Of a stretch of 64,000 nt of DNA, positions 7,928-63,356 are shown one piece after another. Position 1 is the first letter of the stretch; each line of letters begins with the position of its first letter. Position numbers and translations under genes: made by a program. The DNA lies in assembly GCA_017962565.1 (NCBI GenBank), contig JAGCVC010000020.1:68622-132621 (forward strand), in the 5' to 3' direction. Source of the stretch: Alphaproteobacteria bacterium. GTDB taxonomy: Bacteria > Pseudomonadota > Alphaproteobacteria > CAAHEQ01 > UBA3637. Below the pieces are notes generated by a model. That model searched no databases. It was not told the DNA's origin and worked only from the letters and a program-made list of their open reading frames with translations.

Positions 7928-8014
7928 GCCTCTGTGGCGGAATTGGTAGACGCGATAGACTCAAAATCTGTTGCTCGCAAGAGCGTGCTGGTTCAAGTCC
8001 GGCCAGGGGTACCA
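7928..8014 (+). tRNA. tRNA-Leu (anticodon CAA)
   Basis: Folded by hand. Acceptor stem GCCTCTG/CAGGGGT with G-U pairs, D-arm, anticodon loop CTCAAAA (CAA), long variable arm GCTCGCAAGAGCG typical of Leu. T-arm GCTGG-TTCAAGT-CCGGC, discriminator A, encoded CCA. Confidence 0.85.
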
Positions 8015-8272: not shown

Positions 8273-9112
8273 ATGACAAAAAGAAAATTATTTATTCCTG
8301 AAGGATATGAAGAAGATTATATCCGACACATACGACAAGAATCCAAGTACATACAAAGAAAATCACAGTTTGCAGAAGCAGAAATTCCACCTCTTGTTCC
8401 TAAATGGAAACCAACTCTAATGATGTATAATATAACAGATGAGATACAAGAAAAAAACAAACAAAGACATAGCCTTTATGACAAAATAGGTTTTTATGTG
8501 TTCCTTTTTATCTCTTTGATTATAATATATAAGGGACTATGTACAGCTAAAGGATTTTCATCTTTTATTGGAATTCTTTTACATAGAGCTTTCATTTGTT
8601 TAATTTTCGTTGGAGGACCTGTGGGTGCCATTCTATCCATTAAAACAGGTGTTGATAAACGTATTGAAAAATACAACAGACATTTAGAGGCATGGAAATA
8701 TTGGTATGAATTATATCCTCGGAAAAAAGTGATTTCTTATTGGAAAGATTTATCTGGATATAAGTTTGAAAAAGAACTTGCACAAATTTTTATTAAAAAT
8801 GGGTTTGATACTGAAATAACAAAAAAAAGTGGAGATGGTGGAGTAGACATTATACTCAATCCCAAAGGAGAAAAGATTTACATACAATGTAAAGCGTACA
8901 AAACACGTGCCGGTGTGGCTGTTGTCAGAGAGCTTTTAGGATGTATGGAATTAAACAATGTTGAATATGGTATCGTAGCCTGTACAGGAGGCTTTACGAA
9001 AGGAGCTATCGAAGCAGCACTAATGGCACACATTACTTTGTTGGATTCAAGCGATATTGTAAAGTTGATGGATAAAGACATACCATTGGATTATTTCTAT
9101 AGAAAAGAGTAA
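8273..9112 (+). CDS. membrane-anchored Mrr-family restriction endonuclease-like protein (Mrr_cat PD-(D/E)xK domain)
   Basis: 279 aa. N-terminal about 70 aa soluble region, two predicted TM helices (IGFYVFLFISLIIIYKGL; FIGILLHRAFICLIFVGGPVGAILSI). C-terminal domain has hallmark Mrr_cat motifs FEKELAQIF..., SGDGGVDII, IYIQCKAYK, GFTKGAIEAA. Confidence 0.75.
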   Translation: MTKRKLFIPEGYEEDYIRHIRQESKYIQRKSQFAEAEIPPLVPKWKPTLMMYNITDEIQEKNKQRHSLYDKIGFYVFLFISLIIIYKGLCTAKGFSSFIGILLHRAFICLIFVGGPVGAILSIKTGVDKRIEKYNRHLEAWKYWYELYPRKKVISYWKDLSGYKFEKELAQIFIKNGFDTEITKKSGDGGVDIILNPKGEKIYIQCKAYKTRAGVAVVRELLGCMELNNVEYGIVACTGGFTKGAIEAALMAHITLLDSSDIVKLMDKDIPLDYFYRKE

Positions 9113-9224: not shown

Positions 9225-10061
9225 ATGGCTAGTTATTCAGAATTAAATAGTAAATATTTCATAGATAATAAGGCATTTAATTGTCCCTTTTGTGGTTTAA
9301 GAAATACTACTTATACTATATTAGCAATTTTAAAGTATGATTTAAATAAAAACAAGTCTGCTAAAGTTATTTTTGTCCGCTGCAATAGATGTGGAAAAGT
9401 ATCCATTCATTTTGCTTCTTGTGATATACAAACTTCATGGGGAAAAGATGCACTTGGTGTTATCAAAGGTTTCAGTGGTTCTTCTGTGTGGATTAATACA
9501 TTGAATAATATCGATTTTTTAAATTCTAAAAATGATGATAGCGAATTTGATATCGATATAGATTCTAAAATATATCACAGTATTCCCTCTTCATCTTTTA
9601 CAATGGATGAACGAATCCCCAGGAATTTAAGAGATCTTTTTGATGAAGCTCAAGAATGCAAAAAAGCAAATTTAAAGACAGGAGCATCAGCTTGTTTAAG
9701 AAAATTAGTTTATACTTTGTTATCAGATCAGCTAAATAAAAAGCATAAAAAGACGAAGCAATCAATAAAAGATTTAGGCTACGAACATTATTCTGATTGT
9801 ATTAAAGCCTTAAAAGAATATCATCCTAATTTAAGCGTTTTTATCGCCCCTCTAGAAGGTATTACAGGTATAACTAGCGACCAAGTGCATGAAGATTCAT
9901 GGGCTGAAATATCATCACAAGATTTGGGCATTTGCTTAGAAGCTATGAGGGATTTATTAAACCAGATATATGTTCAACCTGCTATCTTGAAAGAAAGAGA
10001 AAACAAAATACGTGAAATGAGTAAGAAAGCATCCACTAAAAAAAAGAGTACGGATAAATAA
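9225..10061 (+). CDS. hypothetical protein with N-terminal Cys4 zinc ribbon and C-terminal DUF4145-like helical domain
   Basis: 278 aa. CPFCG...(26 aa)...CNRCG zinc-ribbon spacing. The C-terminal region (LFDEAQECKKANLKTGASACLRKLVYTLLSD ... GITSDQVHED ... EAMRDLLNQIY) resembles DUF4145 as I recall it, unverified. 112 bp downstream of the Mrr-like gene on the same strand. Confidence 0.5.
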   Translation: MASYSELNSKYFIDNKAFNCPFCGLRNTTYTILAILKYDLNKNKSAKVIFVRCNRCGKVSIHFASCDIQTSWGKDALGVIKGFSGSSVWINTLNNIDFLNSKNDDSEFDIDIDSKIYHSIPSSSFTMDERIPRNLRDLFDEAQECKKANLKTGASACLRKLVYTLLSDQLNKKHKKTKQSIKDLGYEHYSDCIKALKEYHPNLSVFIAPLEGITGITSDQVHEDSWAEISSQDLGICLEAMRDLLNQIYVQPAILKERENKIREMSKKASTKKKSTDK

Positions 10062-10254: not shown

Positions 10255-10812
10255 TTATCTTCCGGAACGACAAAAGATTGCAACATTATGGAATAATTTA
10301 CACCCTCTGTGATTTTTCCCTAGATTTCTTATTTCTCCAATCGTTGTTTGAGAACCTTCCTTCATATTAAAAAGATCTAATGAAACATCCGGACAATCCA
10401 TGCATAAAATAGCAATTCCTTCTGCTGTTTCGGGATTACCATCTAAATCTAAATATAAATCGGCGTATCGATGAGATAATATTTGGGTTGGTTTAATAGG
10501 CAAATTTCCTACTTTTCCGCTGATAGATAAAGTTTCCTTAATAAGCATATTTGTGTACTTTTTACCACCACTACCGTACAAAGCATTTTTATCTGTAAAA
10601 TTACCTTCACCGCTTATAGAGCCTTTTGCATTAAAAGAAAATGGTGCGATTGATGTCCCATCAACTTCATCAGCTTTTATATACGTTTCTTTTTTGATAA
10701 TGCGAACAGAGGTATTATCTTTTCTTTCATCTACTTTTTCCCATGCGTTTACATTGAATAAAGCAGAAAAAATCGTCATTCCTAAAATCAATTGTTTTAA
10801 TTCTTTTTTCAT
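10255..10812 (-). CDS. hypothetical secreted protein (ORFan)
   Basis: Track ORF 10255..10929. Start moved to MKKELKQLILGMTIFSALFNVNA (signal-peptide-like) at 10810-10812 so the gene does not overlap the repeat at 10904-10950. Cys-rich C-terminus. No recognised family. Confidence 0.5.
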   Translation of the reverse strand: MKKELKQLILGMTIFSALFNVNAWEKVDERKDNTSVRIIKKETYIKADEVDGTSIAPFSFNAKGSISGEGNFTDKNALYGSGGKKYTNMLIKETLSISGKVGNLPIKPTQILSHRYADLYLDLDGNPETAEGIAILCMDCPDVSLDLFNMKEGSQTTIGEIRNLGKNHRGCKLFHNVAIFCRSGR

Positions 10813-10903
10813 CTTTAAACCTTCTTTTATGTGTTTCGAGAGCATCATTCTAGCATATTTTATTTTTTTGTCAAGATTTTTTACAAGTGTAAAGTATTCC
10901 GTG

Positions 10904-10950
10904 TGTTTGGCTCGGTATTCGCAAAGCACGCCGTACCAAATTTAACAACC
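10904..10950. repeat. att-like direct repeat copy 3
   Basis: TGTTTGGCTCGGTATTCGCAAAGCACGCCGTACCAAATTTAACAACC: 47 nt matching 10151..10197 with about 5 mismatches. Lacks the terminator-hairpin part. Confidence 0.7.
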
Positions 10951-16299: not shown

Positions 16300-18240
16300 T
16301 TAGTTCTTTTTGGCTTTATGAAATTCCAAAACCATCATTGTAATGTCATCCGATTGTGGAGCATCCTTCACAAAACGTTGTATATGCTTATGTACATTTG
16401 CCACCGTATCCGTCAAAGACATTTCTTTTTGGTTTAATGCTTTCTTCAACCGCTCTTTATCAAAGAATTTTTCATCAATGGTTTGTGCTTCCGGAATACC
16501 ATCCGTATAAAGGAACAATCTGTCATTTTTATTTAATTTAAATTTACCACCTTCGTATTTATAATCTGGTGAAACACACAAAAATAAATTTCGAATAACA
16601 GTGATATAATCATAACCGTCTTTTGTCTTATGTAAGGGTGGACAATGACCGGCACTGACATATTGGACTTGCCCTGTTGTCAAATCAAGAATACCAACAA
16701 ATGCCGTAACAAACATACCACGTGCATGGTTGTCGCAAAGCCCTCTATTCGCTCTATTCATGGCATCTTGCAATGGATATCCAGCTTGCAACATATTTTT
16801 GATAACCGTTTTTGCTGACATCATATACAATGCAGCCGTAATTCCTTTACCGGAAACATCAGCCATGACAAAGGCAAAATGATTTTCATCGACGGGGAAA
16901 AAGTCGTAAAAATCCCCTCCGACTTCTTTTGCTGGGGTCATGGAAGCAAACAATTCAAAATATTCATTTTTAGGAAAATCCTTTGGTAAAGCAGAATCTT
17001 GAATCGTATGTGCAATAGCCAATTCAGATTCCATTTTTTCTTTTTCACTGGAAACTTTTGCCAATTGTAACAGATGCGCTTTCATGTCCGTTTTCATTTT
17101 GTTGAAAGAAGAAGCCAATTGAGCCAATTCGGATGGCTTATCCAAATGAATTGTTTTTTCCAAATCCCCTTGGCTAATTTTTTGTGCTATTTCCGTTAGT
17201 TCAGAAATCGGTTGGTTAATGTTGCGCTTTAACACCCAATACAAAATTCCGACGATGATAAGCGTGCTAATTAAAAGAACACTAAGCAACACACATAAGT
17301 GATGAAGTGCAGCTTGGAAGAGTTCAAATAAAGGGACATTGACGATTAAAAATAATCCGTTGCCGAGTTGTTTGATGTAGGGGATATATTTTGTTCCGTT
17401 ATAATTAAAGGGTTGACCTTCTTTTAATTGCTTTGAATACCACTTAAGTGTTGATAAAGATTTTCCCATAATAGCATCGTTGTTAACGCCTTTTTCCGTC
17501 GTTGCAATGATATAATCGCTTGTCTTATCTGCAAAAAGAACAAAACTGTTTGGAGTTGGTTTGATTTTCAGAATGGATTTCAAAATTGTGTCCAATTCCC
17601 AATCAACCGTTGCCATTCCAACTAAATCCTTTTGATTATAAATACCGGCTCCAACTGTTGTCATAAGAATGCCAAGTTGAGTACTTCTGTAAGGTTTTGT
17701 CCAAGATACTTTTTGTCTTTTTTGTAAGTCGTTCAAAATTTCCGGATACCAATTTTGATCAAAATAATTGAAAGTGTTTGTAACACATGAAGGAAGCATG
17801 CTGATTTGATTGTCCTTTTCCCAAACAGCATGAATACAGGAAATCTTTCTATCATCGGATATTTCGTAGGGCTTAAAGTAAATGCCGTTTCCCATCGAAT
17901 TCGGATAATTTTTCAAAATTTGTTTGGTAAAAAATTCTCCGACATCTTGTTGTTTGCCTTTTTGAAAGTAAATTTCACCCATAACAGCCAAATCTTGCGC
18001 GTTTTTTTCAAGTGCTGCAATTTCGGTGTTCAATTGACCTTCAAATGCTGTAATGGCAGAATTATTTCCGGCAATTATCAGTTCTTTATCGTGGTAAAAA
18101 GCCATAATTGCAGCACCAGTAACTACAAGTCCCAACACAAGCAATAACGAAAGAGTTAAAATAACAATTTTTGATTTGATACTGTTCAGCATTTTATTTC
18201 CTTTTTCTTCGAATATAATACTTTCACTACTTCTTTTCAA
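16300..18240 (-). CDS. sensor protein-serine/threonine phosphatase: periplasmic sensor domain, HAMP, SpoIIE/PP2C (RsbU-like)
   Basis: 646 aa. N-terminal TM, about 280-aa extracytoplasmic region, second TM, HAMP-like linker (ISELTEIAQKISQGDLEKTIH). C-terminal PP2C/SpoIIE motifs (GGDFYDFF, FVMADVSGKGITAAL, LFLYTDGIPEA). Confidence 0.8.
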   Translation of the reverse strand: MKRSSESIIFEEKGNKMLNSIKSKIVILTLSLLLVLGLVVTGAAIMAFYHDKELIIAGNNSAITAFEGQLNTEIAALEKNAQDLAVMGEIYFQKGKQQDVGEFFTKQILKNYPNSMGNGIYFKPYEISDDRKISCIHAVWEKDNQISMLPSCVTNTFNYFDQNWYPEILNDLQKRQKVSWTKPYRSTQLGILMTTVGAGIYNQKDLVGMATVDWELDTILKSILKIKPTPNSFVLFADKTSDYIIATTEKGVNNDAIMGKSLSTLKWYSKQLKEGQPFNYNGTKYIPYIKQLGNGLFLIVNVPLFELFQAALHHLCVLLSVLLISTLIIVGILYWVLKRNINQPISELTEIAQKISQGDLEKTIHLDKPSELAQLASSFNKMKTDMKAHLLQLAKVSSEKEKMESELAIAHTIQDSALPKDFPKNEYFELFASMTPAKEVGGDFYDFFPVDENHFAFVMADVSGKGITAALYMMSAKTVIKNMLQAGYPLQDAMNRANRGLCDNHARGMFVTAFVGILDLTTGQVQYVSAGHCPPLHKTKDGYDYITVIRNLFLCVSPDYKYEGGKFKLNKNDRLFLYTDGIPEAQTIDEKFFDKERLKKALNQKEMSLTDTVANVHKHIQRFVKDAPQSDDITMMVLEFHKAKKN

Positions 18241-20032: not shown

Positions 20033-20830
20033 TTATTCCCCCTTCTTTCCTTTAATTAAAGCTTCCGGATGTTGTTCCAAATAATCTGCCAAATTTTGTA
20101 AAGACTTTGCCGCATCCGATACGTCTTGCAATGTTTTATTCAAATTTGAAATTGTTTCATCGCTGTTATCAGATATTTTCAACAACACTTCATTTAAATT
20201 TTCGACACTCTGAGATAAAGCAGGCATCAAAATTGGTAGTTGTTTATTCAATGTTTCCGTTATATGATTAAATTGATTGATTGTATTTTGAATTTGCAAA
20301 TGATCCAATCCCTTTGAAAATTCTTCTGTTTTTGAAAGAACTGTTGGAACCTGCAAAAATTTTTCGTCATCTTGTCCATGAACTTCTTCGACTTCAGTAT
20401 CTGGTAACATAACCAACTCAATTCCTAATTGTCCTGTTAACAAACTTTGTGTCGTCAATCTGGCACGCAAACCCTGCTTAATTAAAGCATTTAACAAATC
20501 ATCTTCCCTTTGCCATATTCTTTCCCACATAGAAGCTTCTTCTGCATCTTCGAAGGGATGCATCCGAATATAAACGGGGATTTGAAATTGTAAATCTTTT
20601 GGATTCGCCACCAAACGAATACGGATAACTTTACCCACCTCTACCCCTTGAAATACAACAGGGGAACCTTCTGACAACCCTTGAATAGATTCGTGAAAAT
20701 ACATAACATAAACACCTGTTTCATCAGATCTTATTTTATGCCAAACAGATTGACAAATCAGCCAAAAAAATAAGGCAAAACCAACAATCAAAAATAAACC
20801 AATCGCTTTTTTATTAGGTTCTTTTTTCAT
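20033..20830 (-). CDS. mlaD: MCE-domain protein MlaD (outer-membrane lipid asymmetry system)
   Basis: 265 aa. N-terminal TM, MCE domain, long helical C-terminus. Follows mlaF-mlaE. Confidence 0.8.
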   Translation of the reverse strand: MKKEPNKKAIGLFLIVGFALFFWLICQSVWHKIRSDETGVYVMYFHESIQGLSEGSPVVFQGVEVGKVIRIRLVANPKDLQFQIPVYIRMHPFEDAEEASMWERIWQREDDLLNALIKQGLRARLTTQSLLTGQLGIELVMLPDTEVEEVHGQDDEKFLQVPTVLSKTEEFSKGLDHLQIQNTINQFNHITETLNKQLPILMPALSQSVENLNEVLLKISDNSDETISNLNKTLQDVSDAAKSLQNLADYLEQHPEALIKGKKGE

Positions 20831-30888: not shown

Positions 30889-31814
30889 TTTCCAAAAAAC
30901 TCCCGTATCAAAGCTTTTACATTTTCTGGTTTTGTTTCATTATAAACACTTTGTCTGAAATTAGCAACAAAAGAATGTCCACTTGCGTACCAAGCAAGAT
31001 GTTTTCTTGCAATAAACAACCCTTTTCTGCCATAATAAGAAAGTAATCTGTCAAAATGTTCCTGCACAATCGGTTCAATATCTGATGGTGGTTCTTGCCC
31101 ATCAATTTGCGCTAAAATCCAAGGCCGTCCCAAAGCTCCACGCCCAATCATCAATCCGTCTGCTAACGTCTGTTTTCGACAATTTTTCGCTGTCTGTTCA
31201 TCGACAATATCACCATTGGCAATTACGGGTATTGATAAAACTTGCTTAACTTCTGCGATTTTTGACCAATCTGCTTTACCGCTATAGCCGTCTGCTTTTG
31301 TTCTGGCATGAATTGTAACAGCATCTGCACCGGCCTGCTCCATGTATAAGGCAAATTCTTTTACATTGATATGTTCTTTATCCCACCCCAAGCGCATTTT
31401 AACTGTCACAGGAATTGAAACAGCTTTTTTAACGGCTTCCACAATTTCAGCAGCCAAAATCGGTGATTGCATCAACGCAGCTCCCGAAGTGTTGGAAATC
31501 AGTTTTCGAACGGGGCAACCCATATTGATATCAACCAAAAAAGCGCCATTTTGCTCTGCTTTTTTCGCGGCCATTGCCATGTGTTCGGGATTATTACCAA
31601 CCAATTGAATAGCTATCGGAGCTTTTTCATCAGATAAATCCATCATCCGTTCGGTTGTTTTTGAACCGTAAACATAAGAAGTTGCCGCAACCATTTCATC
31701 ATAAAGCAAATGCTTTCCGAATTGTCGCATCATTTGGCGGAAAGGCTTATCCGTCACACCAGCCATCGGCGCTAAAAAAACATTTGAAGAAAGTTTTGAA
31801 AGAAAATCACTCAT
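30885..31814 (-). CDS. dusB: tRNA-dihydrouridine synthase B
   Basis: 309 aa. LAPMAGVTD..., DINMGCP, ...KMRLGW motifs typical of DusB/NifR3. Confidence 0.85.
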   Translation of the reverse strand: MSDFLSKLSSNVFLAPMAGVTDKPFRQMMRQFGKHLLYDEMVAATSYVYGSKTTERMMDLSDEKAPIAIQLVGNNPEHMAMAAKKAEQNGAFLVDINMGCPVRKLISNTSGAALMQSPILAAEIVEAVKKAVSIPVTVKMRLGWDKEHINVKEFALYMEQAGADAVTIHARTKADGYSGKADWSKIAEVKQVLSIPVIANGDIVDEQTAKNCRKQTLADGLMIGRGALGRPWILAQIDGQEPPSDIEPIVQEHFDRLLSYYGRKGLFIARKHLAWYASGHSFVANFRQSVYNETKPENVKALIREFFGN

Positions 31815-32734
31815 TTGCGCGACCGTTTTTCATCCATGAAAGAATAGGCCTGATAAAGTGCTTCTTCTTGTTCTTCTTGGCTCATTTTTTCAAAAAAATC
31901 CTTAAGTTCCGGCGAAACAGTTGTCAAATCTGTTTCATTGGGGAACAAGTACGATAAGGAAACATATAACCAACTGGCAGCTTTAATCTTGCTGGAAGAA
32001 TCATCTTTTTTAGAATAAATTTCGTACAGTTTACGCTGGGCCGGGATATAATCATGCTGTGCGGCTTGCTCGTACCAGAACAAAGCCTTTTCCATATCTT
32101 TGTGAACTCCAAGTCCTTCCAAATAAAGATTCGCCAAAGAATACATTGCTTCCAAATGTCCTTGAGCTGCTGCTTTTTCGTACCAGATGGCTGCTTGTCC
32201 GTAATCCATTTGGATTTTTTTGCCTTCTGCATACAAACGTCCCAAGTCAAATTGACTTTGACTGTCTCCGAAAGTTGCCGTTTTTACAATCCACTGCATA
32301 TTCCATCTATCATCAATTGTTGGTGGACTGAGCATCTTGTATGCTGGTTGATTGCGTAAAATCTCCAATGCCTGAACAGCTTGCTTATCTCCCCGCAAAG
32401 CTGCTTTTTCATACCATTTTTCAGATTCCAACAAATCGGGCGGAACACCGGGCTTTCCATATTGATAAATATGCCCCAATGCAAACTGAGCTTCCAAAAC
32501 ACCCTGTCGTGCAGCTTTATAAAGCCATGAAACAATAACAGGATATTCTGTATCTTTTTGTTTTTCGTAAAATAAAGCCAATTGATATTGAGATTCCGCA
32601 TTTCCGCTTTCTGCGGCTTGATACAATTGCTTAAAAGCCTCATCATTTTGATTAAGCGGCAGCAAAACAGAAGCATTTACAGGTAATGCCATTCCCAAAA
32701 CGAATCCCATAAATATCAGTTGACTTTTACGCAT
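31811..32734 (-). CDS. secreted Sel1/TPR-like repeat protein
   Basis: 307 aa. Signal peptide followed by at least five Sel1 repeats ([31 protein letters not shown]; [30 protein letters not shown]; etc.). Confidence 0.75.
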
Positions 32735-32800
32735 ATTTCTTATACTTTCTTTCCTATCAGAAGCAATTATAACAGTTTTTTTAAAAAGGTTAAGAGAAAA

Positions 32801-34129
32801 ATGGATAAAAAAGCGCGTGTTATCGGAGCCGGTTTAGCCGGCAGTGAAGCGGCTTGGCAACTTGCAAAGTGCGGTTATCAAGTTGATTTATACGAAATGC
32901 GCCCTGTGAAGAATACACCGGCACACACAACGGATAAATGCGCTGAATTGGTTTGTTCCAATTCGCTACGCAGTGATGATTGGCAAACAAATGCTGTCGG
33001 TTTGCTTCATGAAGAATTACGCCGCTGCGGTTCTTTAATTATGAACTGCGCAGATGAAACACGTGTGCCAGCCGGTGGAGCATTGGCTGTGGATCGTGAA
33101 GCTTTTTCAAGTTTGGTAATGCAAAAATTGACTTTTCATCCTTTAATTACCATCCACAGAAAAGAAATAACCGATTTAGATGAACTGGATGACATCCCCA
33201 CCATTTTGGCAACCGGCCCTTTAACCAGTGAAAAAATGGCTGAAAATTTACAAAAAATAACCGGAGACGAACATTTACATTTCTTTGACGCGATTGCCCC
33301 GATTGTTTATACAGACAGTATTGATATGTCGCAAGCGTGGTATCAATCCCGCTATGACAAAGGCGACAAATATGATTATCTGAATTTGCCAATGAACAAA
33401 GAGCAGTACGAAAATTTTGTTGCAAATCTGTTGGCCGGTGAAAAAGTCGAATTTCATGATTGGGAAAAAGAAACACCCTATTTTGAAGGATGTTTGCCGA
33501 TTGAAGTGATGGCCGAACGCGGTCCTTTAACTTTGCGTTTTGGACCAATGAAACCGGTCGGATTGACCAACCCGCGTGATCCGAAAAATAAACCTTTTGC
33601 TGTTGTCTAATTACGTAAAGAAAATAAAGAAGGTACATTGATGAACCTGGTCGGTTTTCAAACGAAATTAAAATATAATGCGCAAAAAGAAATTTTTTCA
33701 AAAATACCGGGATTGGAAAATGCTTCATTTGCACGCATGGGCGGCATCCACCGTAATACTTTTGTTTGCGGCCCGAAAGTCTTAGATGAAAGATTGCATT
33801 TAAAAAATAAATCAAACGTTATCTTGGCCGGGCAAGTTTCCGGGTGCGAAGGTTATGTTGAAAGCACAGCTATGGGATTTTTGGCCGCACGATTGTTGGC
33901 AAATTCGGCATTGCCTTTGCCACCGGCCGAAACAGCTTTGGGCGCAATGCTAAGGCACGTCACGTCCGGCAACGTAGAAACTTTCCAACCGATGAACATC
34001 AACTTTGGCATCTTCCCCGAATTACCGAAAACAGGCGGACGAAAAATTAAAGGCGCAGACCGTAAAAAACTTTATTCCGACCGCGCCCTTTCCGCCCTTG
34101 ATAAGTGGATGAAGAATTTTATTTATTAA
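32801..34129 (+). pseudogene. trmFO: methylenetetrahydrofolate--tRNA-(uracil54-C5)-methyltransferase TrmFO interrupted by one in-frame TAA (33608-33610)
   Basis: Track ORFs 32720..33610 and 33638..34129 are in the same frame. Together they span a complete TrmFO (N-terminal [21 protein letters not shown] motif; C-terminal NLVGFQTKLKYNAQKEIFSKIPGLENASFARMGGIHRNTF). The only interruption is TAA at 33608-33610, at the position where TrmFO proteins have Gln in the conserved ...AVVQLR... segment. The frame reads AVV*LRKENKEGTLMNLVGFQT, so this is a CAA to TAA change, or a sequencing error. Confidence 0.75.
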
Positions 34130-34135
34130 TTGAAA

Positions 34136-35245
34136 TTATTCTTCCAGCGGGATGATTCTTTTGTTTTTAATTTGTTTTAAGAATGTTGGAACGCGCAACA
34201 ATCCGTTATCTTCCAAATGCACATTGCCGATCAGTCCTTGATAATCCCTTTGCTGATACATGGTATCGCGAAATTCTTTTGTGGTTGGAATACGTTTTAA
34301 TGCTCTTCCAGCTTTTTCATAAGTATTTACAATGACATTCATTGCATCATACATATAGACAGCGTCAGGATGTTTTGACTTTAAAAAGTTTTCCCATTCA
34401 GCATTATAAGGTTTTCCAACCTCATAGAAACCGTCAAAATACGTAAAATCATAATTAGCAGTTTCCACCGTATCAAAGCCCAAAAGAGGCATATCAAATT
34501 CCTGCGATTTAATTTCTCGCGCAATAAATACAATACCGGGAGCCCATCCATAAAGAATGACCAAATCATGATTATTGGATTTTACCCTTGCAACCATCGT
34601 TCTGAAAGCATCCAATTCCTTTCCGTCATACAGGTATTTTTCGTAAGTTATTCCTTTTTCTTTTAACTTAGGTTCCATAATATTAAGAATTTCAACCCCT
34701 CCGGGAACTTGTTGAAAAATCAACCCGACATTCTTAAATTTCCATTTAAAAATAAAGTCCAATGCCGCCGGGGCTAAATCAGAGCCGGTCACAGAACAAT
34801 TAAAAATATTTTTTCCGTCTGATAAATCCGCATAGCTATCAATAAAAAGAATTTTATCATTTTCAATCATCAACGGTTTAATTGCACTGCTGGGACCTGA
34901 CCAACTGGACATAATCAGATGCACCCCATCCATATCTAACATTTTATGCGCTATAGTTATGGTATTTGCCGCCTTTAACTCATCATCCTGCGCAATAAGT
35001 TTATAGTTGAAGTAACGGTCGGGATTACTATTCGCTTTATCTAACACCATTTGCGCAGAATTTAAAACATCTTTTCCCAAATATCCCATGGCACCCGTCA
35101 TCGGATAAATAAGCCCAATTTTGATAACCGGTTTGTCACTTTTCTGCTCTTGTTGTTGATACACATTAATACTGATGATACTCGCTACCACCAGTACAGC
35201 TAAACACCATCCAATTATTTTTTTCCAACTTACTTTCTTTGTCAT
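34136..35245 (-). CDS. membrane-anchored periplasmic binding protein, LivJ/LivK-like (PBP type 1), no cognate permease nearby
   Basis: 369 aa. N-terminal uncleaved-looking TM anchor (WKKIIGWCLAVLVVASIISINVY). PBP1 fold with Leu/Ile/Val-binding-protein-like motifs. Confidence 0.7.
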   Translation of the reverse strand: MTKKVSWKKIIGWCLAVLVVASIISINVYQQQEQKSDKPVIKIGLIYPMTGAMGYLGKDVLNSAQMVLDKANSNPDRYFNYKLIAQDDELKAANTITIAHKMLDMDGVHLIMSSWSGPSSAIKPLMIENDKILFIDSYADLSDGKNIFNCSVTGSDLAPAALDFIFKWKFKNVGLIFQQVPGGVEILNIMEPKLKEKGITYEKYLYDGKELDAFRTMVARVKSNNHDLVILYGWAPGIVFIAREIKSQEFDMPLLGFDTVETANYDFTYFDGFYEVGKPYNAEWENFLKSKHPDAVYMYDAMNVIVNTYEKAGRALKRIPTTKEFRDTMYQQRDYQGLIGNVHLEDNGLLRVPTFLKQIKNKRIIPLEE

Positions 35246-37357: not shown

Positions 37358-40300
37358 TTTTCTTCCACCTCTTCCGCCATTTTGGCGAAGGTTTCAAGTA
37401 AGCTTTTGACACCGACAAGACGATCCATCGGATTGTTCCAAATACGTGTGATTGTCAACTTATCAGGCTTTAATTTTGCCAAGCCCATTTGCGAATTAAC
37501 AAAGCCGACCAACCCCGCTGGATTAGGGAATAAATTGTTCCTAAACGTAATCGACATTCCTTTACTGCCCGCTTCGATTTTTTCAATATGTGCTTGACGG
37601 CATAAAGTTTTTAATGAAACCGTTGTCAACAAGTTTTCAACCTCTTCCGGTATAGCACCGAATCGATCTTCCAATTCCAAACGTATTGATTGCATTTCTT
37701 CCGGCGTTTGCAAGTTCGCCATACGATGATAAAGCTCCATACGCAATCCCAGATCCGGGACATACTTTTCCGGTATCAATACTGACAACCCTAAAGAAAT
37801 TTGCGGCGAATAGTTTTCTTGTTCGATATTTTCAATATCTTGGCCGCTTTTCAGCATAGAAACTGCATCTTCCAACATTTTTTGGTATAATTCGACACCG
37901 ACTTCTTTAATATGCCCGGATTGTTCTTGACCAAGTAAGTTACCGGCTCCGCGAATATCCAAATCATGACTTGCCAACGTAAAACCGGCACCTAAACTAT
38001 CAAGACTTTGCATCACTTCCAACCGCTTTTGAGCTCCCGGCGTTAAAACTTTGTTTTCAGAAGTCGTCAAGTAAGCATAAGCTTTGACCTTAGAACGCCC
38101 TACCCGTCCGCGCAATTGATATAAAGCCGCCAAACCGAACATATCAGCTCTGTGAATAATTATTGTGTTCACATCCGATAAGTCAATTCCCGATTCGATA
38201 ATAGAAGTTGCCAATAAGACATCAAACTTGCCATCAACGAAATCCGTCATAATTTTTTCCAATTCGGTTGGCTTCATTTGTCCGTGAGCCGCGACTATTT
38301 TCAATTCCGGCACAATGCGTTTCAACTTGTCCATCAAAGGTGCCATATCCGAAATACGCGGACAAACATAGAAGGTTTGACCACCACGCAAATGCTCACG
38401 CATCATAGCATCCCGCAAAATCACCGCATCGAAAGGCAAAACAAAAGTACTGACCGCCAACCTGTCCACCGGTGGCGTTGCAATCAAGCTTAGATCCCGA
38501 ACTCCTGTCAACGACATCTGTAACGTACGTGGGATAGGCGTTGCCGTCAATGTCAAAACATGAACAGATGCTTTTAATGCCTTTAATTGTTCCTTATGAG
38601 CTACACCGAAGTGCTGCTCTTCATCCACAATCAGTAACCCTAAATTTTTAAACTGCACGGACTTTGCAAGCAAAGCATGCGTTCCGATGACAATATCAAC
38701 AGATCCGTCCGCCAAACCGGCCAATGTTTTTTTCTTTTCTGCCGCACTGACCAAACGTGAAAGCCGCCCGATTTTAAGTGGAATCCCTTCAAATCGTTTT
38801 GCAAAAGTAGCATAATGTTGACGCGCTAACAACGTTGTCGGAACAATAACCGCAACTTGCATTCCACTTTCTGCTGCCATAAAAGCCGCACGTAAAGCCA
38901 CTTCCGTCTTACCAAAACCAACATCTCCACAAACCAACCGATCCATCGGATGACCGGATGCAAAATCCGATATTACATCATTGATGGAGTGCAATTGATC
39001 TTCCGTTTCCACATAGGGAAAACGAGCGCAAAATTCATTATAAAATCCAATATCGGGAGTTACAACCGGCATTTGTGTTGCATAACGAGCCGCTGCAATA
39101 CCTATCAATTTTTCAGCCATTTCTAATAATTGTTTTTTAACTCTGGCTTTACGTGCTTGCCAACCGGAACCGCCCAATCTGTCCAATGCAACTGCCGTAT
39201 TTTCCGAACCATACCTGGAAAGCATATCCAAGTTTTCAACCGGCACAAATAATTTATCGTCACCATCATAGATAATTTTCAAGCAATCGTGTGCTGTTCC
39301 GCCCGCCTGCAAAGTAATTAAACCTTCATACCGACCGATACCATGTGTCACGTGAACAACCAAATCTCCGATATTTAAAGTTGAAATATCTTCAATAAAG
39401 TTTTCTTTTGCTTTTCTGTGACGTGTCGGACGAATCATCCTCTCGCCCAAAATATCTTCTTCGGTTAAAATGGTAAAATCTTTTGCAACGAAACCTTTTT
39501 CAAGTGGTATCTGTATGATCGAGGGCGCATTTTTCAAGGCACCAACCCAAGAAAAAGCTTTATTTAAGGATATACCAAATTGGGCAATTCCTTTTGTAAT
39601 ATGTTCACTTGATGAATCCGAAAAAGAAGCAATAATAACCGGATGTTTTGATTTATGAATAAACTGTGCAACTTTTTCAAAAACATTTCCGGATGCTCTG
39701 TCAGCAGCGAAACTGATACCGACACGCGATTGCAAATCTTCCTGGTCAGGTCCGACAAATGAGGATAAAACAAAACGATCAAAACCGTGTAACTTTGTTT
39801 GCCATTCTTCTTCATTTAAAAAGAAAGTGTCCGGAGCAACAGGATAATACACATCTTCCAATTTATCTTTAATTTTTAAAGCGTTCAAACGCGCTTGATA
39901 GTATTCCATTATCTGTGATTGACGCGATAAAACGGCTTGCGGAACATCTTCATCTAAATAAATTGGTGTTTCAGATGGCAAATAATCCAAAAAGCAATCC
40001 ATTTTTTCAAAAAACAAGGGCAACCAATGTTCCAAACCATTTACTTTTCGACCTGCTGAAACGCTTTCATAAAGCATATCAGAAGATGTCTGTCCCCCCG
40101 CCAACGCACGATAACGTGTCCGAAAATCCGAAATTGTCTTTTCGTTCAAAACATATTCGGCCATAGGCTTAATGGACAAATTTTGCACAATCGCATTCGT
40201 TTTTTGCGTTGTGACAGAAAAAGTCCGAATGCTTTCCAAAACATCTCCGAATAAATCCAACCGATAAGGCTCTTCCGACCCGCTGACGAAAATATCCATA

Positions 40301-41635: not shown

Positions 41636-42651
<1,016 letters not shown>

Positions 42652-45273: not shown

Positions 45274-45578
45274 AGAGTCAAACGAACTAAGAAATAAATA
45301 CCAATCACAGAAACACACGATAAAATGATTCTGATAAAATCTTTCAGAATTGCCAAAAATGTCCGTTTTATGTAAGCGCCTTCAGCACGGTATGCAAATA
45401 TCCATATGAGCAAATTGAAGAAAATTACGGAAATAAAGACAATTGCATATAATATAGGCGATATAATCAAATTAAACAAATTCATATCCGAAAGAAAAGA
45501 TACCAACACAAGTCCAAGGACAACTCCAATCACATCGGAAAAATGAAATGAAAGCATTTTCTTCATAAGTTTAAACAT
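45267..45578 (-). CDS. small membrane protein (three TM helices)
   Basis: 103 aa hydrophobic ORF, 2 nt downstream of the Sel1 gene stop. Confidence 0.4.
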   Translation of the reverse strand: MFKLMKKMLSFHFSDVIGVVLGLVLVSFLSDMNLFNLIISPILYAIVFISVIFFNLLIWIFAYRAEGAYIKRTFLAILKDFIRIILSCVSVIGIYFLVRLTLQ

Positions 45579-45579
45579 A

Positions 45580-46620
45580 TTATCTTCTCCGCATCAATCT
45601 TTGTGAACGTTTCGGACGGGGACGAGCTTTATCCTTATCAACAACACCTTCAAGAGGAGTAATCGGAGCAATTACATAATCGTCTTCTTCCGGTTTAATA
45701 GGAAGATCAACTTCTTTATTTGTTACACGTTTGTTCAATGTAACACCTTCCGATTTTGCCCTTGATATGTCAGAAGAACTCATCGAATCTGATAAAAGCT
45801 CAAGTGCTGAGTTAGCCTTATCAAAATTATTTTTAGCTGCTTCCGACATCCACGCATATGCCTGAATCTTATTAACTCCACCTTCAACCAAACCATCTGC
45901 ATACATAGTAGCTAGGTTGAACTGAGCCATAGGGAATCCCATCACAGCAGCATATTCATAAAAGGAACGAGCTTTCTCCATGTTCTGCTCAACACCAATA
46001 CCATTTTGATACATATGCCCTAACATATAGTGCGCTTCCACCGATTTTAACTGAGCTGCGCGTTTATAGTATGTAAAAGCTTTGGTTGCATTTTTTGCTA
46101 CACCATACCCATAAAAATATAAATTTCCCAAGTAAAACTGAAGAATCGGATGTTTTACACTTTCGATGGAATTCAACAACTCAAAAGCCTTTTCGTAATT
46201 TTGTGGAACGCCCTCTCCTCTGTAGTACAAAACACCCAAGTTCATAATCGCGGTTACATCAAATTCATCTGCAGATTGTTGGTAAAGTTCGAAGGCCTTT
46301 TGTCTGTTTCGTCTGACTCCTTTTCCTTCGTCATACATATATCCCAAAAAAGTCCTGGCTTCAGTATGACCCTGCTCTGCTGCAGCTTCAAATAAAGAAA
46401 AAGCTCTTTCATAACTCTGTGGACCACCCAAGCCGTGATAAAGCATAAAAGCAGTCAAATACTGACACTTTGCATCTTTTTCGAGCAAGCATCCCCTCAG
46501 CTCTGCTTCCGTTGTTGTATAATCGGCCTTCTGAAAAGCCTCCAACCCCTTGACATAATCAGCAAAACTTAACGAACTTATTGTAGAAAACAACAAAACA
46601 TAAAAAAACGTTTTCTTCAT
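45580..46620 (-). CDS. secreted Sel1-repeat protein with basic C-terminal tail
   Basis: 346 aa. Signal peptide. At least six Sel1 repeats (LGYMYDEGKGVRRNRQKAFELYQQSA; LGVLYYRGEGVPQNYEKAFELL; LGNLYFYGYGVAKNATKAFTYYKRAA; LGHMYQNGIGVEQNMEKARSFYEYAA...). C-terminus ...KARPRPKRSQRLMRRR. Confidence 0.75.
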   Translation of the reverse strand: MKKTFFYVLLFSTISSLSFADYVKGLEAFQKADYTTTEAELRGCLLEKDAKCQYLTAFMLYHGLGGPQSYERAFSLFEAAAEQGHTEARTFLGYMYDEGKGVRRNRQKAFELYQQSADEFDVTAIMNLGVLYYRGEGVPQNYEKAFELLNSIESVKHPILQFYLGNLYFYGYGVAKNATKAFTYYKRAAQLKSVEAHYMLGHMYQNGIGVEQNMEKARSFYEYAAVMGFPMAQFNLATMYADGLVEGGVNKIQAYAWMSEAAKNNFDKANSALELLSDSMSSSDISRAKSEGVTLNKRVTNKEVDLPIKPEEDDYVIAPITPLEGVVDKDKARPRPKRSQRLMRRR

Positions 46621-52713: not shown

Positions 52714-55038
52714 TTAGTCAGAGGAATCTTCATCTTTATCATTCAAGACATCTGACAAAGTATTCAACAACTCTCTTCCCAATTTCTGAGCTTTTGTCTG
52801 TTCAGTTGTTTTCTTTTCTTGTTTTTGTTCTGTTTTTTCAGAAGCAACTGCAGCCACGCGACCAAAATAATCATCAATTGTCTTTAATTGCATATCAGCC
52901 GATGCGACACGGCAAATGGAAACGCCTTCAACCACTTTTTTGGTAGTATAAGCATCTAACACAGCCCTTTTACTGTTAAGTTTAGAATGCTTTGTTGTTC
53001 CATCTTCAGAGTTACCGGATGCATTATTTGTTTCGACACTTGCTTTTGGTTCCGCCAAATTACCACTTAGGACAACAGCACGCATAACACCGGTACTTTG
53101 TCCATAGCGATCAACGGCATTTTTTTGCGGAGCAAGATGTAAATTGATTGTTTCCTTGTCAAAATTAACATCACCACTTATTAACATATTAAAACGACTG
53201 GTTTCAACTGCTACTTTTTTATCAAAAGAAACCACACCATTATTAACAACAGCATTTACCACAGCACATTTTACAAATAAATCTTTTGAAGCCCGGTATG
53301 TGCCATTTGCATCATTTTCAGCAAATAAATCTGCAACCAGAGGGGACAGAATTTCAACTTGATTGGCTGAAAGCAACAAATAGCCGTTTAAAGAACTCCA
53401 AATATCTTTTTGAGTATTGCCTTCCGCTGTCAAGAATAAATTAACATTGAAAACACCATTTAACAATTGTTTCTTCCAACTGCTCACTTGATTAAACATC
53501 AAATTCTCACCGACCAATTCCAAATTCCAATTCGGTTTCTGAGCATTTTCCGCATCAATGACAAGTTTACCAACAACTTGTCCGCCCGCGATGAAAGAAT
53601 TTTCCAACAAGCGTACATCCAAAACACTGTCTTTCAACTGAACCTTACTTATAATAACCGGGTAACGCGAAAATAAGTTCTTTGCGGAAAAATTGTCTAT
53701 TGATAAAGACAAAGTTGCATCGAATTTATCCAACCAACTCAAATTAATCTTACTCTTAGAAAACAATGAATCATCAATAGAAAGTTCATCATCAAGATTC
53801 GTCAAAGGATTCTTTTCAAAAATGTTTGAAAATTTAAAATAATGCGAATGCAACTTACCGGAAATTACGGGCTTTTTAGCGGACAAATCTACATTCAATG
53901 ATCCGTCTATATCCGTTTCATCAAACATTAATGTTAAATTTGAAATATCCAACGATTTATCCAAAACAACATTATAGTTTGCTTGTGCCGAAAAAGTTCT
54001 TAAACCGAATCGTCTGACAAGGTCAGGCTTAGAAACATCAATGTTAACACGCCCTTTTCCTTCTTTACTGTCTAAGTTTTGTTCCACATTATAGGATATG
54101 CTAACACCATCACTGGTAAATTCCAAAACACCATCCATCAATAACTGTCTTTTTAACAACCGACCGGCAAATTGGAATGAATAAGCGGTCGCGGGAACAT
54201 CATTTTCCCCTATCATAAAGAACTCATATACCTTTTTTAAATCCGTCCCTTGAGAATTGATGTTCAAGATTATATCATCTTCACACTTTGTCAAATCACG
54301 ACATACACCGGAAATTTTGGAAGAACCGTCCAATCCGTTAACAGAAAAGCTGAAATTCAAATCACGTTTGTTTACAATAACAGAAAGTAAATTTTTAACA
54401 GATCCGGAGAAGTTGAACTTTTCTTGATTAGATAAAAGTTCCCCTTCAATATTGACCAAATGATCAATAGCTAACTTATTCAAAACAAAAACATTATTTA
54501 TGTTATCCTGTTTGTTATCATAACTTATTTTAACATTTCTCATAGTAATCAAGTCAAATTCTGCTTGCTCTGCAGGAGATAACGATTCGGCTTTTGAAAG
54601 TGTCGGACGCTTCCGTTCTTTCTTATTTTCACCGACTCGTTGTGTCTTTGGAAGACGACTCCAGTTATCATGTCCTACTTCATTAACTTGCAGGAAAACA
54701 TCAACATCAGAAAAATTAATCCGTTGAACCTTAATAATATCCTTCAAGAAAAGAAGCAAATCAAAGGATACCTCAGCTTCTTTTGCTTTAAAGAAAACGG
54801 GTTCCGAAAAACCGGCGGCATTTTTAATTTCTACGTCACGAAGAACCAAATTGGGCTTTAATGATTTCGAAAGGCTCATTTCTCCTTGAATAGAAACCGC
54901 ATATCCGGTGTGATCTAACAAGAATTTTTCGATGCTACCTTTATAGGTGTTAACATCAAAGGTGAAGAGATATATAACTCCACCAAATATGACGGCAAGA
55001 ATCAAAACTAACAAAGAAATTAATATATTTTTCATCAA
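52714..55038 (-). CDS. AsmA-family outer-membrane biogenesis protein
   Basis: 774 aa. N-terminal TM anchor plus AsmA N-domain pattern. Long beta-rich periplasmic body. AsmA-like C-terminal region. Confidence 0.7.
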   Translation of the reverse strand: MMKNILISLLVLILAVIFGGVIYLFTFDVNTYKGSIEKFLLDHTGYAVSIQGEMSLSKSLKPNLVLRDVEIKNAAGFSEPVFFKAKEAEVSFDLLLFLKDIIKVQRINFSDVDVFLQVNEVGHDNWSRLPKTQRVGENKKERKRPTLSKAESLSPAEQAEFDLITMRNVKISYDNKQDNINNVFVLNKLAIDHLVNIEGELLSNQEKFNFSGSVKNLLSVIVNKRDLNFSFSVNGLDGSSKISGVCRDLTKCEDDIILNINSQGTDLKKVYEFFMIGENDVPATAYSFQFAGRLLKRQLLMDGVLEFTSDGVSISYNVEQNLDSKEGKGRVNIDVSKPDLVRRFGLRTFSAQANYNVVLDKSLDISNLTLMFDETDIDGSLNVDLSAKKPVISGKLHSHYFKFSNIFEKNPLTNLDDELSIDDSLFSKSKINLSWLDKFDATLSLSIDNFSAKNLFSRYPVIISKVQLKDSVLDVRLLENSFIAGGQVVGKLVIDAENAQKPNWNLELVGENLMFNQVSSWKKQLLNGVFNVNLFLTAEGNTQKDIWSSLNGYLLLSANQVEILSPLVADLFAENDANGTYRASKDLFVKCAVVNAVVNNGVVSFDKKVAVETSRFNMLISGDVNFDKETINLHLAPQKNAVDRYGQSTGVMRAVVLSGNLAEPKASVETNNASGNSEDGTTKHSKLNSKRAVLDAYTTKKVVEGVSICRVASADMQLKTIDDYFGRVAAVASEKTEQKQEKKTTEQTKAQKLGRELLNTLSDVLNDKDEDSSD

Positions 55039-56007: not shown

Positions 56008-57293
56008 TTCTTTTTCTGCTTTCTTAAATTATCCCAATATGTCAGGCGTTTATTGATTTCACGTTCAAAACCCCTTTCCGGCGGACGATAAAAGGTACAA
56101 TGATGCATCTTATCCGGAAAATACTCTTGTCCGGAAAAACCGTCTTCAGTATCTGGATCATATTGATAACCTTCGCCATAACCCAATTCACCCATTAACT
56201 TTGTCGGAGCATTTAATATGTGCATCGGCGGAGAAAGAGAACCGGTTTCTTTTGCTGTCTTTTGAGCGGCACCCCAAGCCTTATAAACACCAACGGACTT
56301 TGGTGCTGTCGCCAAATAAACAACTAATTCGGCAATTGCCAAATCACCTTCCGGTGAACCAAGCCTTTCGTATGTGTTCCATGCTGAAATAGCAATGTTT
56401 ATCGCATTTGGATCGGCCAAACCAACATCTTCTGTTGCAAAACGCGTCAAACGACGCAAAACATATTTTGGATCTTCGCCGCCTTGCAACATACGTGCCA
56501 ACCAATACAAACCCGCATCCGGATCACTGCCACGTAAAGATTTATGCAAAGCGCTGATTAAATTATAATGCCCTTCTCTGTCTTTATCATAAAGCGGCAT
56601 ACGTTGTGAAATAACTTTTGACAACTGCTCTGTTGTCATCGGTTTATCGGCACCATATTGTTCGATTGCTTCAATCATATTGATAAAGTAACGGCCGTCA
56701 CCGTCTGCCAAATTTAATAAATACTCTTTTGCATCTTCCTCCAATGGCAGAGGATGTCCCAATTCTTTTTCAGCCTTTGCTAAAATTTTTTCCAATCCGT
56801 CACGTTCCAAAGCTTTCAACACAAAAACCTTACAACGTGACAATAAAGCGCTGTTCAATTCAAAAGACGGATTTTCCGTTGTTGCACCGACCAAAATAAC
56901 CGTACCGTCTTCTACATAAGGTAAAAAACTGTCCTGTTGAGAACGATTGAAACGATGGATTTCATCCACAAATAACAGTGTCTTTTTACCCATCTGCCGA
57001 CGTGCTTTTGCATTTTCAAAAATTTTGCGTAAATCAGCAACACCCGAAAAAACAGCAGACAAAGGCTCATAATACAAGCCGGCAACGTTGGCAAATAATT
57101 TTGCAATTGTCGTTTTACCGCAACCGGGAGGGCCCCAAAGAATAAAGGAAGAAACTTTACCCGTTTTCATCATACGTCCCAATGGTGCATCAGGCGCCAA
57201 CAAATGATCCTGCCCGACGACTTCTTCCAAAGTTGCCGGACGTAAACGATCTGCCAAAGGACGATCTTGCGGACGTTCAAAAAGTGTTGCCAT
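55995..57293 (-). CDS. rarA: replication-associated recombination protein A (RarA/MgsA AAA+ ATPase)
   Basis: 432 aa. Walker A GPPGCGKTT, Walker B LFVDEIHRFN, sensor and MgsA C-terminal helical domain. Confidence 0.9.
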   Translation of the reverse strand: MATLFERPQDRPLADRLRPATLEEVVGQDHLLAPDAPLGRMMKTGKVSSFILWGPPGCGKTTIAKLFANVAGLYYEPLSAVFSGVADLRKIFENAKARRQMGKKTLLFVDEIHRFNRSQQDSFLPYVEDGTVILVGATTENPSFELNSALLSRCKVFVLKALERDGLEKILAKAEKELGHPLPLEEDAKEYLLNLADGDGRYFINMIEAIEQYGADKPMTTEQLSKVISQRMPLYDKDREGHYNLISALHKSLRGSDPDAGLYWLARMLQGGEDPKYVLRRLTRFATEDVGLADPNAINIAISAWNTYERLGSPEGDLAIAELVVYLATAPKSVGVYKAWGAAQKTAKETGSLSPPMHILNAPTKLMGELGYGEGYQYDPDTEDGFSGQEYFPDKMHHCTFYRPPERGFEREINKRLTYWDNLRKQKKKCQK

Positions 57294-61783: not shown

Positions 61784-62257
61784 TTATTTTGCTTTAAAAA
61801 CTCCGGAATAAGCAATTGCACAATGCTCTTCACAGTAAATTTTGCCGGGAACACATTCTTGGCCACAGAAGCAAAAATCTGGATCTTTCGGATCGCCTTC
61901 CGGCCAACGACATGAATTTGGTTTTAAATCAACCAACTGAACACCTTTACGTTTCTTCTTTTTAGGAACAGCTTTTTCCACAATCGGTTCAACTTCAAAA
62001 ACAGGTTCCGGTGGTAAAATACTCTGTGTTACTTTTTGTTTAGGCGCTTCCACTGTTTTTTTAGGTGCACGGACAACTGTTGCTTCTTTTTTCTTATCGC
62101 GTTTAATAGGTGAAGGACGGCCTTCCAATCCCAAACGGTGAGCCTTACCGACAACGGCATTTTTACTCATACCAATACGATTGCCGATTTCGACCGTTGT
62201 TAAACCTTTGTTCCACAAACGTTTCAATTCTTTGATTAAATCGGGTGTCCAAGCCAT
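61784..62257 (-). CDS. gcrA: cell-cycle regulator GcrA
   Basis: 157 aa. N-terminal MAWTPDLIKELKRLWNKGLTTVEIGNRIGMSKNAVVGKAHRLGL matches the GcrA DNA-binding domain. C-terminal Cys/aromatic-rich sigma70-interaction domain. Confidence 0.8.
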   Translation of the reverse strand: MAWTPDLIKELKRLWNKGLTTVEIGNRIGMSKNAVVGKAHRLGLEGRPSPIKRDKKKEATVVRAPKKTVEAPKQKVTQSILPPEPVFEVEPIVEKAVPKKKKRKGVQLVDLKPNSCRWPEGDPKDPDFCFCGQECVPGKIYCEEHCAIAYSGVFKAK

Positions 62258-62309: not shown

Positions 62310-63356
62310 TTAAAAGTCAAGCAAAACCGGTGTTCCTAAAAATAATAATTTATCGTGGAACGTTTTTTCCAATTCTTCTTCTTTTCCTTCAATTGCATCT
62401 ACATCTGCCTTACTGGTATCAAACATATGTAATAAAGCCATACTCAAGCGACGACGATAGGAATTCTTTGGTGATTTCATAGAAGCTTCCACCTCATAAT
62501 AAATAGCGCGAAGAATTCCGGGAGCCGCTAACTTCATTCGATAAGCCTTTATAACAGCATCACATTTTTGTGCAAATTCATCAACGGTCATATTTTCCGC
62601 TTTTACTTGATTTTCAAACCATTTATCTGCTTCTATTTTATCCAAATGAGAAATTAATGATTGACACGGATTAACATGAGCATCAATCAATACATTCGTA
62701 TCTTGATAATCTAAGATCAAAATATTGCGCCGTTCACGTCCCTTGGAACCAATCTCTAACTTCTTTAGTTTGCCCATAACAGTTATAACAGAGGCAACAT
62801 CTTTCTGAGTTAAATCTCCTTGTTTTCTCTTTCTTTGCTTGATTTGATAGGTACCATTTAACAACTGTCCCAAAAAAGAATCTGGATCAATAGAAGGCGG
62901 AAAAATCCGATTCATTTCTTCCGTTGAACTTATTTGAATCACTTGTGGTACAAATTCGGAATGATGTCCCTCTTTTTCCGGTTCCGGCCACGCTTCCGGC
63001 ATCAAATACGGATAAAAAACAGGATGCAAATAACGCAAATGCTCTTTAGCAAATTCTTCCAATTGAGGTGCTATTCGAGTTGGTAATTTTCTGCGCCATT
63101 CAACAATACCAGGCATCATACGTGTTTTTTCCGAAACCCCATACATGTCTGCAACCATCGGCATCACATATTGGTGATATAAAGGATCTATTGCAAACAG
63201 CATTTGAACGAACATTTCTTCATTTTTCAGTGGGTTCTTTGTAAGTTCCACAATCTCTTCAACGCTCATATCACCCACTGCCCTTGGAATCTGCCGAGCA
63301 CCGGTTTCAAAGGATACAAAGAATATTAGAAAGAATACTAAAATTTTCTTCATCAT
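62310..63356 (-). CDS. hypothetical secreted protein
   Basis: 348 aa. Signal peptide (MMKKILVFFLIFFVSFETGA). No recognised domain. Start overlaps the stop of the upstream DUF4139-like gene (ATGA). Confidence 0.5.
   Translation of the reverse strand: MMKKILVFFLIFFVSFETGARQIPRAVGDMSVEEIVELTKNPLKNEEMFVQMLFAIDPLYHQYVMPMVADMYGVSEKTRMMPGIVEWRRKLPTRIAPQLEEFAKEHLRYLHPVFYPYLMPEAWPEPEKEGHHSEFVPQVIQISSTEEMNRIFPPSIDPDSFLGQLLNGTYQIKQRKRKQGDLTQKDVASVITVMGKLKKLEIGSKGRERRNILILDYQDTNVLIDAHVNPCQSLISHLDKIEADKWFENQVKAENMTVDEFAQKCDAVIKAYRMKLAAPGILRAIYYEVEASMKSPKNSYRRRLSMALLHMFDTSKADVDAIEGKEEELEKTFHDKLLFLGTPVLLDF

Follow-up and report, generated by a model that had tools for sequence, protein, structure and literature searches.

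An assembly-private in-frame TAA at a conserved glutamine codon of trmFO in an alphaproteobacterial metagenome-assembled genome

Introduction

TrmFO (Gid) is the folate/FAD-dependent tRNA (uracil54-C5)-methyltransferase, which forms m5U54 in tRNA from methylenetetrahydrofolate and FADH2. In the alphaproteobacterial assembly studied here, trmFO reads as a complete gene except for one in-frame TAA, placed at a codon where homologs encode Gln. Stop codons reassigned to Gln are familiar from some phages (TAG) and from ciliates (TAA/TAG), and a clean stop at a Gln position bears a superficial likeness to such recoding systems. It could also be a young null allele, or a mistake in the consensus. A first-pass annotation of the 64,000-nucleotide stretch of DNA analysed here (the window) left very recent pseudogenisation, sequencing error and tolerated readthrough side by side as options. 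Is the stop real and, if so, is it still read as Gln? We address this question by setting the gene against its protein family, its homologs and a set of near-clonal assemblies from other samples.

Structure of the trmFO locus

The complete trmFO frame runs from 32801 to 34129 on the plus strand, and comprises 442 sense codons followed by the natural TAA terminator (34127..34129). It is interrupted once, at codon 270, by a premature ochre TAA (33608..33610) in the sequence gct gtt gtc TAA tta cgt aaa gaa aat aaa. The first-pass annotation had described two plus-strand ORFs, 32720-33610 and 33638-34129, as halves of a single TrmFO; the two do lie in one common frame (both starts are 2 mod 3), and ATG 32801, inside the former, is the sensible biological start. 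Translation of 32801-34129 gives NKPFAVV, the stop, and then LRKENKEGTLMNLVGFQT, with this as the single internal stop, confirming the location of the TAA to the base. The C-terminus (KNFIY) coincides with the C-terminus of homologs in the alignment, and the natural terminator is followed by T, forming TAAT as at the internal stop.

Profile matches divide at the same point. The segment upstream of the stop (32801..33607), which would yield a 269-residue N-terminal product if the stop is real, matches positions 3-264 of the 441-position TrmFO equivalog profile NF003739 with 415.7 bits, and on its own exceeds the profile cutoff of 262. The 172 codons downstream (33611..34126), untranslated or orphaned in the window allele, match positions 266-437 with 213.9 bits. 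One profile column is absent between the two halves, and the stop codon sits in that column; the halves are thus in frame and a single codon apart, and together they make up a complete TrmFO. The Pfam GIDA match is divided likewise, into positions 3-281 and 289-387 of 391. When the stop is replaced by Gln, as in the sibling alleles described below, the protein is colinear with positions 3-437 of NF003739, with no indels at the junction, and scores 651.8 bits against that profile (cutoff 262) and 570.9 bits against TIGR00137 (cutoff 428.65). The N-terminal fragment retains the GxGxxG FAD motif and both conserved cysteines (C52 and C231), but lacks the final third of the GidA-type FAD fold (Pfam GIDA positions 289-387).

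Upstream of trmFO lies a divergently oriented Sel1-repeat gene (31811-32734). The two start codons, at 32734 and 32801, are separated by only 66 bp, so the genes may share a promoter region. A second Sel1-repeat protein is encoded at 45580-46620.

Conservation of the Gln codon

A protein search with the stop replaced by Gln returned thousands of TrmFO homologs. The 120 listed are all full length (434-468 residues), and none of them is split; the closest cluster representative among the matches listed is 90% identical to the restored protein. In an alignment of 25 of these homologs (64-90% identity), the stop column is occupied by Gln in every sequence, within the motif VVQLRKEN. At the level of DNA, the aligned codon is a Gln codon in 80 of the 80 alphaproteobacterial genome loci listed, as CAG in 56 and CAA in 24. 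The closest relatives among the GTDB genome matches listed are uncultured gut/rumen-type Alphaproteobacteria MAGs, at approximately 66% identity (all at or below 67%). The Thermus thermophilus TrmFO structure 3G5Q also carries Gln at this column (FAVVQLRQED), and aligns with the restored allele over residues 4-438, with 423.7 bits and an E-value of 6.9e-126. Ortholog alignment therefore upholds the proposal that the TAA replaces a conserved Gln, and a stop at the Gln270 column was found in none of the 25 homologs, the 80 loci listed or five sibling contigs.

The restored protein also has the family's other hallmarks, among them the architecture of a GidA-type FAD domain that carries an insertion domain. 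G9, G11, G14, C52 and C231 are invariant across 26 sequences (the window protein and the 25 homologs), and C52 and C231 align with the VCSNSL and FEACVP segments of 3G5Q. We take these two residues to be the counterparts of the catalytic cysteines Cys51/Cys223 of T. thermophilus and Cys53/Cys226 of Bacillus subtilis. In its colinear full-length match and its two conserved Cys residues the gene corresponds to TrmFO (Gid) as defined by NF003739/TIGR00137 and the T. thermophilus structures 3G5Q, 3G5R and 3G5S. It departs from them in that codon 270 of the window allele is a stop, such that no full enzyme is encoded as written, whereas the five sibling contigs carry ordinary intact members of the family.

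Sibling assemblies and the origin of the T

The intact 442-residue product was located on five contigs from at least four samples. Four of these are ENA ERZ27256979 (228 kb), Logan SRR12529100 (18.8 kb), ENA ERZ28653958 (3.9 kb) and ENA ERZ28018878 (3.3 kb); the fifth is a contig of 50-200 kb whose accession was not displayed. Compared base by base over the 1,329 bp of trmFO, the siblings differ from the window at a single position, 33608, where the window has T and the sibling assemblies, including all four contigs displayed, have C (CAA, Gln). The segment downstream of the stop, 33611..34126, shows zero differences from the intact alleles, and the uninterrupted frame that is broken in the window at codon 270 is present in all sibling assemblies. 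Moreover, the exact product of the neighboring gene (34136-35245) is found on four other contigs, each with an adjoining intact 442-residue trmFO.

This similarity extends well beyond the gene. The 228-kb ENA contig (ERZ27256979 k141_946342) differs from the window by six mismatches in 64,000 positions, with no indels, and over approximately 31.8 kb the contigs of Logan SRR12529100 differ at 33608 and 38425 alone, both of which are private to the window. With no other difference in the 1,329 bp of the gene, these counts argue that the nonsense change is young. The direction of change is given by the five contigs with CAA and by Gln in all 105 more distant homologs (the 25 aligned and the 80 loci listed). 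Since near-clonal siblings read CAA and trmFO is otherwise identical between them and the window, the T at 33608 is a derived C>T transition, private to this assembly, on a terminal branch and extremely young. The CAA to TAA change, which had been deduced from the conserved residue, is thereby seen directly. No other assembly searched carried the T allele.

The same strain is near-clonal over at least five metagenome samples or assemblies, among which the shared SNVs 57148, 57160 and 61809 define sub-genotypes. A 38-mer with either allele (Y at 33608) had no match in a JGI metagenome scan. Megablast of 32000-35000 against PLSDB plasmids gave no match, which suggests that the region is chromosomal and absent from that collection.

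The deposited annotation agrees with the presence of the stop. Four window proteins are identical to NCBI entries, namely an MlaD-family protein (MBP5534961.1), a SpoIIE-family phosphatase (MBP5534958.1), a Sel1 protein (MBP5534976.1) and an ABC substrate-binding protein (MBP5534977.1), all of them named in the form 'MAG: ... [Alphaproteobacteria bacterium]'. The Sel1 and ABC genes flank trmFO and their accessions are consecutive, which indicates that no TrmFO protein was deposited between them. The stop is thus presumably in the public record, with trmFO treated there as a pseudogene. In keeping with a source MAG that has no deposited TrmFO protein, the truncated products (269, 296, 163 and 162 residues) had no exact match in a collection of 15 billion proteins.

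Private variants

Four SNVs in the 64 kb are private to the window when it is compared with all other assemblies. At 16578, a plus-strand C>A changes Gly539 to Cys in the SpoIIE-family protein, with the ancestral base on five Logan/ENA contigs (4 + 1). At 20755, a plus-strand C>A changes Gly26 to Cys in MlaD, with the ancestral state on four ENA contigs and in a 141-residue ENA fragment. The remaining two are the plus-strand C>T at 33608 (Gln270stop in TrmFO; ancestral on five contigs) and a plus-strand A>C at 38425, which is synonymous in mfd and ancestral in three other samples. Pairwise SNV counts between the other samples resemble this private count. Both Gly to Cys changes convert GGT to TGT, and the Cys versions are found only in the NCBI MAG (MBP5534958.1 and MBP5534961.1).

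A stop among so few changes requires no special cause. Of all possible single-base substitutions in the coding sequence of the window, 5.1% create a stop (5.4% for GC>AT transitions), such that the probability of at least one stop among four private SNVs is approximately 0.19. The nonsense SNV is no more than chance would give, and is statistically unremarkable.

The spectrum of these changes is more distinctive. The three protein-altering private changes are all radical, and each falls on the second C of a CC on the plus strand. For two of them, 20755 and 33608, the surrounding ancestral sequence fits one pattern, G-W-C-[C]-A-A-T (20752-20758 and 33605-33611). A further ten GWCCAAT sites in the window show no change, and the motif is somewhat under-represented there (10 observed against 17.8 +/- 4.5 expected). 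The shared motif could be due to chance, to a mutation hotspot linked to methylation or to a site prone to errors. We did not adopt an explanation through a methylation motif, given the ten unchanged sites and the post hoc nature of the match.

Sibling assemblies have singletons of their own. At window position 32024, one of them reads TAA for TAC at a site in the Sel1 gene that lies 22 nt short of where its contig ends; near window position 40094, a 1-bp insertion splits mfd into 918 and 234 residues; and at window position 62411, AAG reads TAG in an N-containing scaffold. These disruptive sibling singletons are probably assembly artefacts, and probably indicate the base rate at which 'pseudogenes' arise in this material. 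Clusters of three to four SNVs per 40-70 nt also occur in single sibling assemblies, at 41788-41822, 45280-45286, 53135-53173 and 57148-57215, the latter two at contig ends or scaffold joins. These clusters look like assembly-end noise or small recombination patches.

Other features of the window

The window has a G+C content of 36-37%, and GC skew on the plus strand is persistently negative. The GcrA cell-cycle regulator (gene at 61784-62257) is encoded immediately upstream of polA, in agreement with an alphaproteobacterial origin. At 8273-9112 and 9225-10061, an Mrr-type restriction endonuclease gene (Mrr_cat, NA-iREase1) adjoins a gene for a 278-residue protein with no Pfam match, just downstream of tRNA-Leu(CAA) at 7928-8014. 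This pair may represent a small tRNA-associated defence islet. In sample ERZ28653882, a 62-nt stretch (10686-10747) within the minus-strand ORF 10255-10929 is replaced by approximately 66 unalignable nucleotides. This gene, which also lacks a Pfam match, is called there as 97 residues rather than 197, and the stretch forms a small hypervariable or rearranged segment.

Discussion

We favor the reading that the window carries a real, very young loss-of-function allele of trmFO, present in the source strain or in its majority genotype, and give this a probability of roughly 55%. Under this reading, a single C>T at 33608 would have turned Gln270 (CAA) into an ochre TAA on the branch leading to this MAG. 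Translation would break off at codon 270, where UAAU forms a strong termination signal, to leave a 269-residue fragment, probably inactive without the C-terminal third of its FAD-binding fold. The tRNA would then lack methylation at U54, barring a second enzyme encoded elsewhere in the genome. Cells would tolerate this loss, since TrmFO has proved dispensable in those bacteria in which it has been tested, and no recoding mechanism need be involved. Such dispensability makes the loss of the gene plausible: T. thermophilus survives deletion of trmFO (PMC6418473), and trmFO is reported to be frameshifted in a viable strain of another alphaproteobacterium, Brucella melitensis CMCC55210 (PMC11073494).

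It is quite possible, even so, that the T stems from an error in the consensus, in base calling or in assembly, or from a minority allele picked up by the assembler, and that trmFO in the organism is intact with CAA at codon 270. Several observations speak for this reading, and count against a real variant. The T occurs in one assembly and is opposed by five contigs with C. It is accompanied by two private Gly to Cys changes from C>A, giving a damage-like spectrum (C>A, C>A and C>T) in which all three changes fall at CC and two share GWCCAAT. Library damage typically produces C>A/G>T and C>T artefacts, which can enter a low-coverage consensus. The approximately 31.8 kb that match SRR12529100 at all but two window-private positions suggest that the MAG could come from the same or a sister sample, and sibling assemblies of the same population contain disruptive singletons too. 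However, those sibling artefacts cluster at contig ends and scaffold joins, whereas 33608 lies deep within a long contig, over 30 kb away from each end of the window and inside 227 kb of contiguous sequence. Neither are there any indels relative to the siblings in 64 kb. The private synonymous SNV at 38425 in mfd points to a sample or genotype slightly distinct from the siblings, as opposed to a copy with damage, and the number of private SNVs matches the differences that separate other samples. Both of these outcomes, recent pseudogenisation and sequence error, were among the options of the first-pass annotation, and both survive our analysis; its third option, readthrough or reassignment, is strongly disfavored by the sibling CAA and by the ordinary use of TAA as a terminator.

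All readings other than a null allele or an error or minority allele are, taken jointly, unlikely. One of them supposes that the stop is real and that function is kept by readthrough, through an ochre suppressor tRNA encoded elsewhere or a near-cognate tRNA-Gln. Basal readthrough of UAA in bacteria often inserts Gln, which here would restore the ancestral residue and so could maintain a trickle of wild-type TrmFO, with the nonsense allele buffered naturally. We regard both this reading and the buffering that it implies as very unlikely, and the data show nothing specific beyond such a basal level. UAA-U is the most efficient termination signal in E. coli, and no natural terminator context is more frequent in the window, where it is seen at 18 of 52 long ORFs. 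Compared with shuffled sequence, the RNA past the stop shows no gain in folding (z = -0.54), and the flanks are identical to those of intact alleles, such that no dedicated signal can have evolved. Leu-CAA is the sole tRNA within the 64-kb window, and the stop is conserved in no relative examined. Less credible still is a two-piece enzyme, in which translation would restart at ATG 33641 and the 269-residue N-terminal and 162-residue C-terminal fragments would assemble into active TrmFO. From the sequence, this ATG appears to be the only conceivable restart site: a GAAGGT (33629-33634), Shine-Dalgarno-like by chance, stands 6 nt before it and the ATG itself 31 nt past the stop, within a short stretch (33629..33643) that also holds an in-frame TTG at 33638. 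However, the putative ribosome-binding site is ordinary coding sequence (K-E-G-T-L-M) that is also present in intact alleles, and a restart would lose residues 270-280 (QLRKENKEGTL), including the invariant L271, R272, K273, E274 and G278. The lack of any split trmFO among the 120 homologs listed likewise argues against a functional two-part enzyme.

A change of genetic code, with TAA read as Gln, is recommended only by the coincidence of a stop at a Gln column, and its probability is vanishingly small. TAA ends 35 of 51 long ORFs in the window (36 of 52 when the internal stop is counted), trmFO itself terminates in TAAT at a C-terminus common to homologs, and siblings use CAA at codon 270. 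The first-pass annotation had called for a genome-wide count of TAA at other conserved sense positions; within the 64-kb window, no other gene contains an in-frame TAA. Nor was any other interrupted gene found in the window, which is separated by six SNVs and no indels from a sibling in which every gene call is intact. Within the limits of the window, reassignment and programmed readthrough are all but excluded. The locus is unlike known stop-recoding systems on every point but the Gln position, with an unconserved stop, a strong termination context, TAA as the standard terminator and no other gene affected.

A real null allele would instead find its closest parallels among young nonsense-SNV pseudogenes, which it resembles in its one disabling substitution, the lack of further decay, an intact near-clonal allele and a dispensable gene. 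Mollicutes are reported to have lost m5U enzymes repeatedly (PMC7226160). The Brucella melitensis CMCC55210 case (PMC11073494) and the Mollicutes (PMC7226160) show that inactivation of trmFO occurs and is compatible with viability. Those cases concern frameshifts or whole-gene losses in cultured or reduced-genome lineages, whereas here a nonsense SNV is seen in one MAG. The feature is of a kind already known: an ordinary private nonsense SNV in a dispensable tRNA-modification gene.

Overall, the finding carries little biological weight, and its practical value is one of caution over clean in-frame stops at conserved codons in MAGs. Comparison with near-clonal siblings reduces an apparent case of recoding to a private SNV at roughly the rate expected by chance. 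At most, these data suggest that a fresh trmFO null can exist in an alphaproteobacterial strain of gut or rumen type, which would fit the known dispensability of m5U54.
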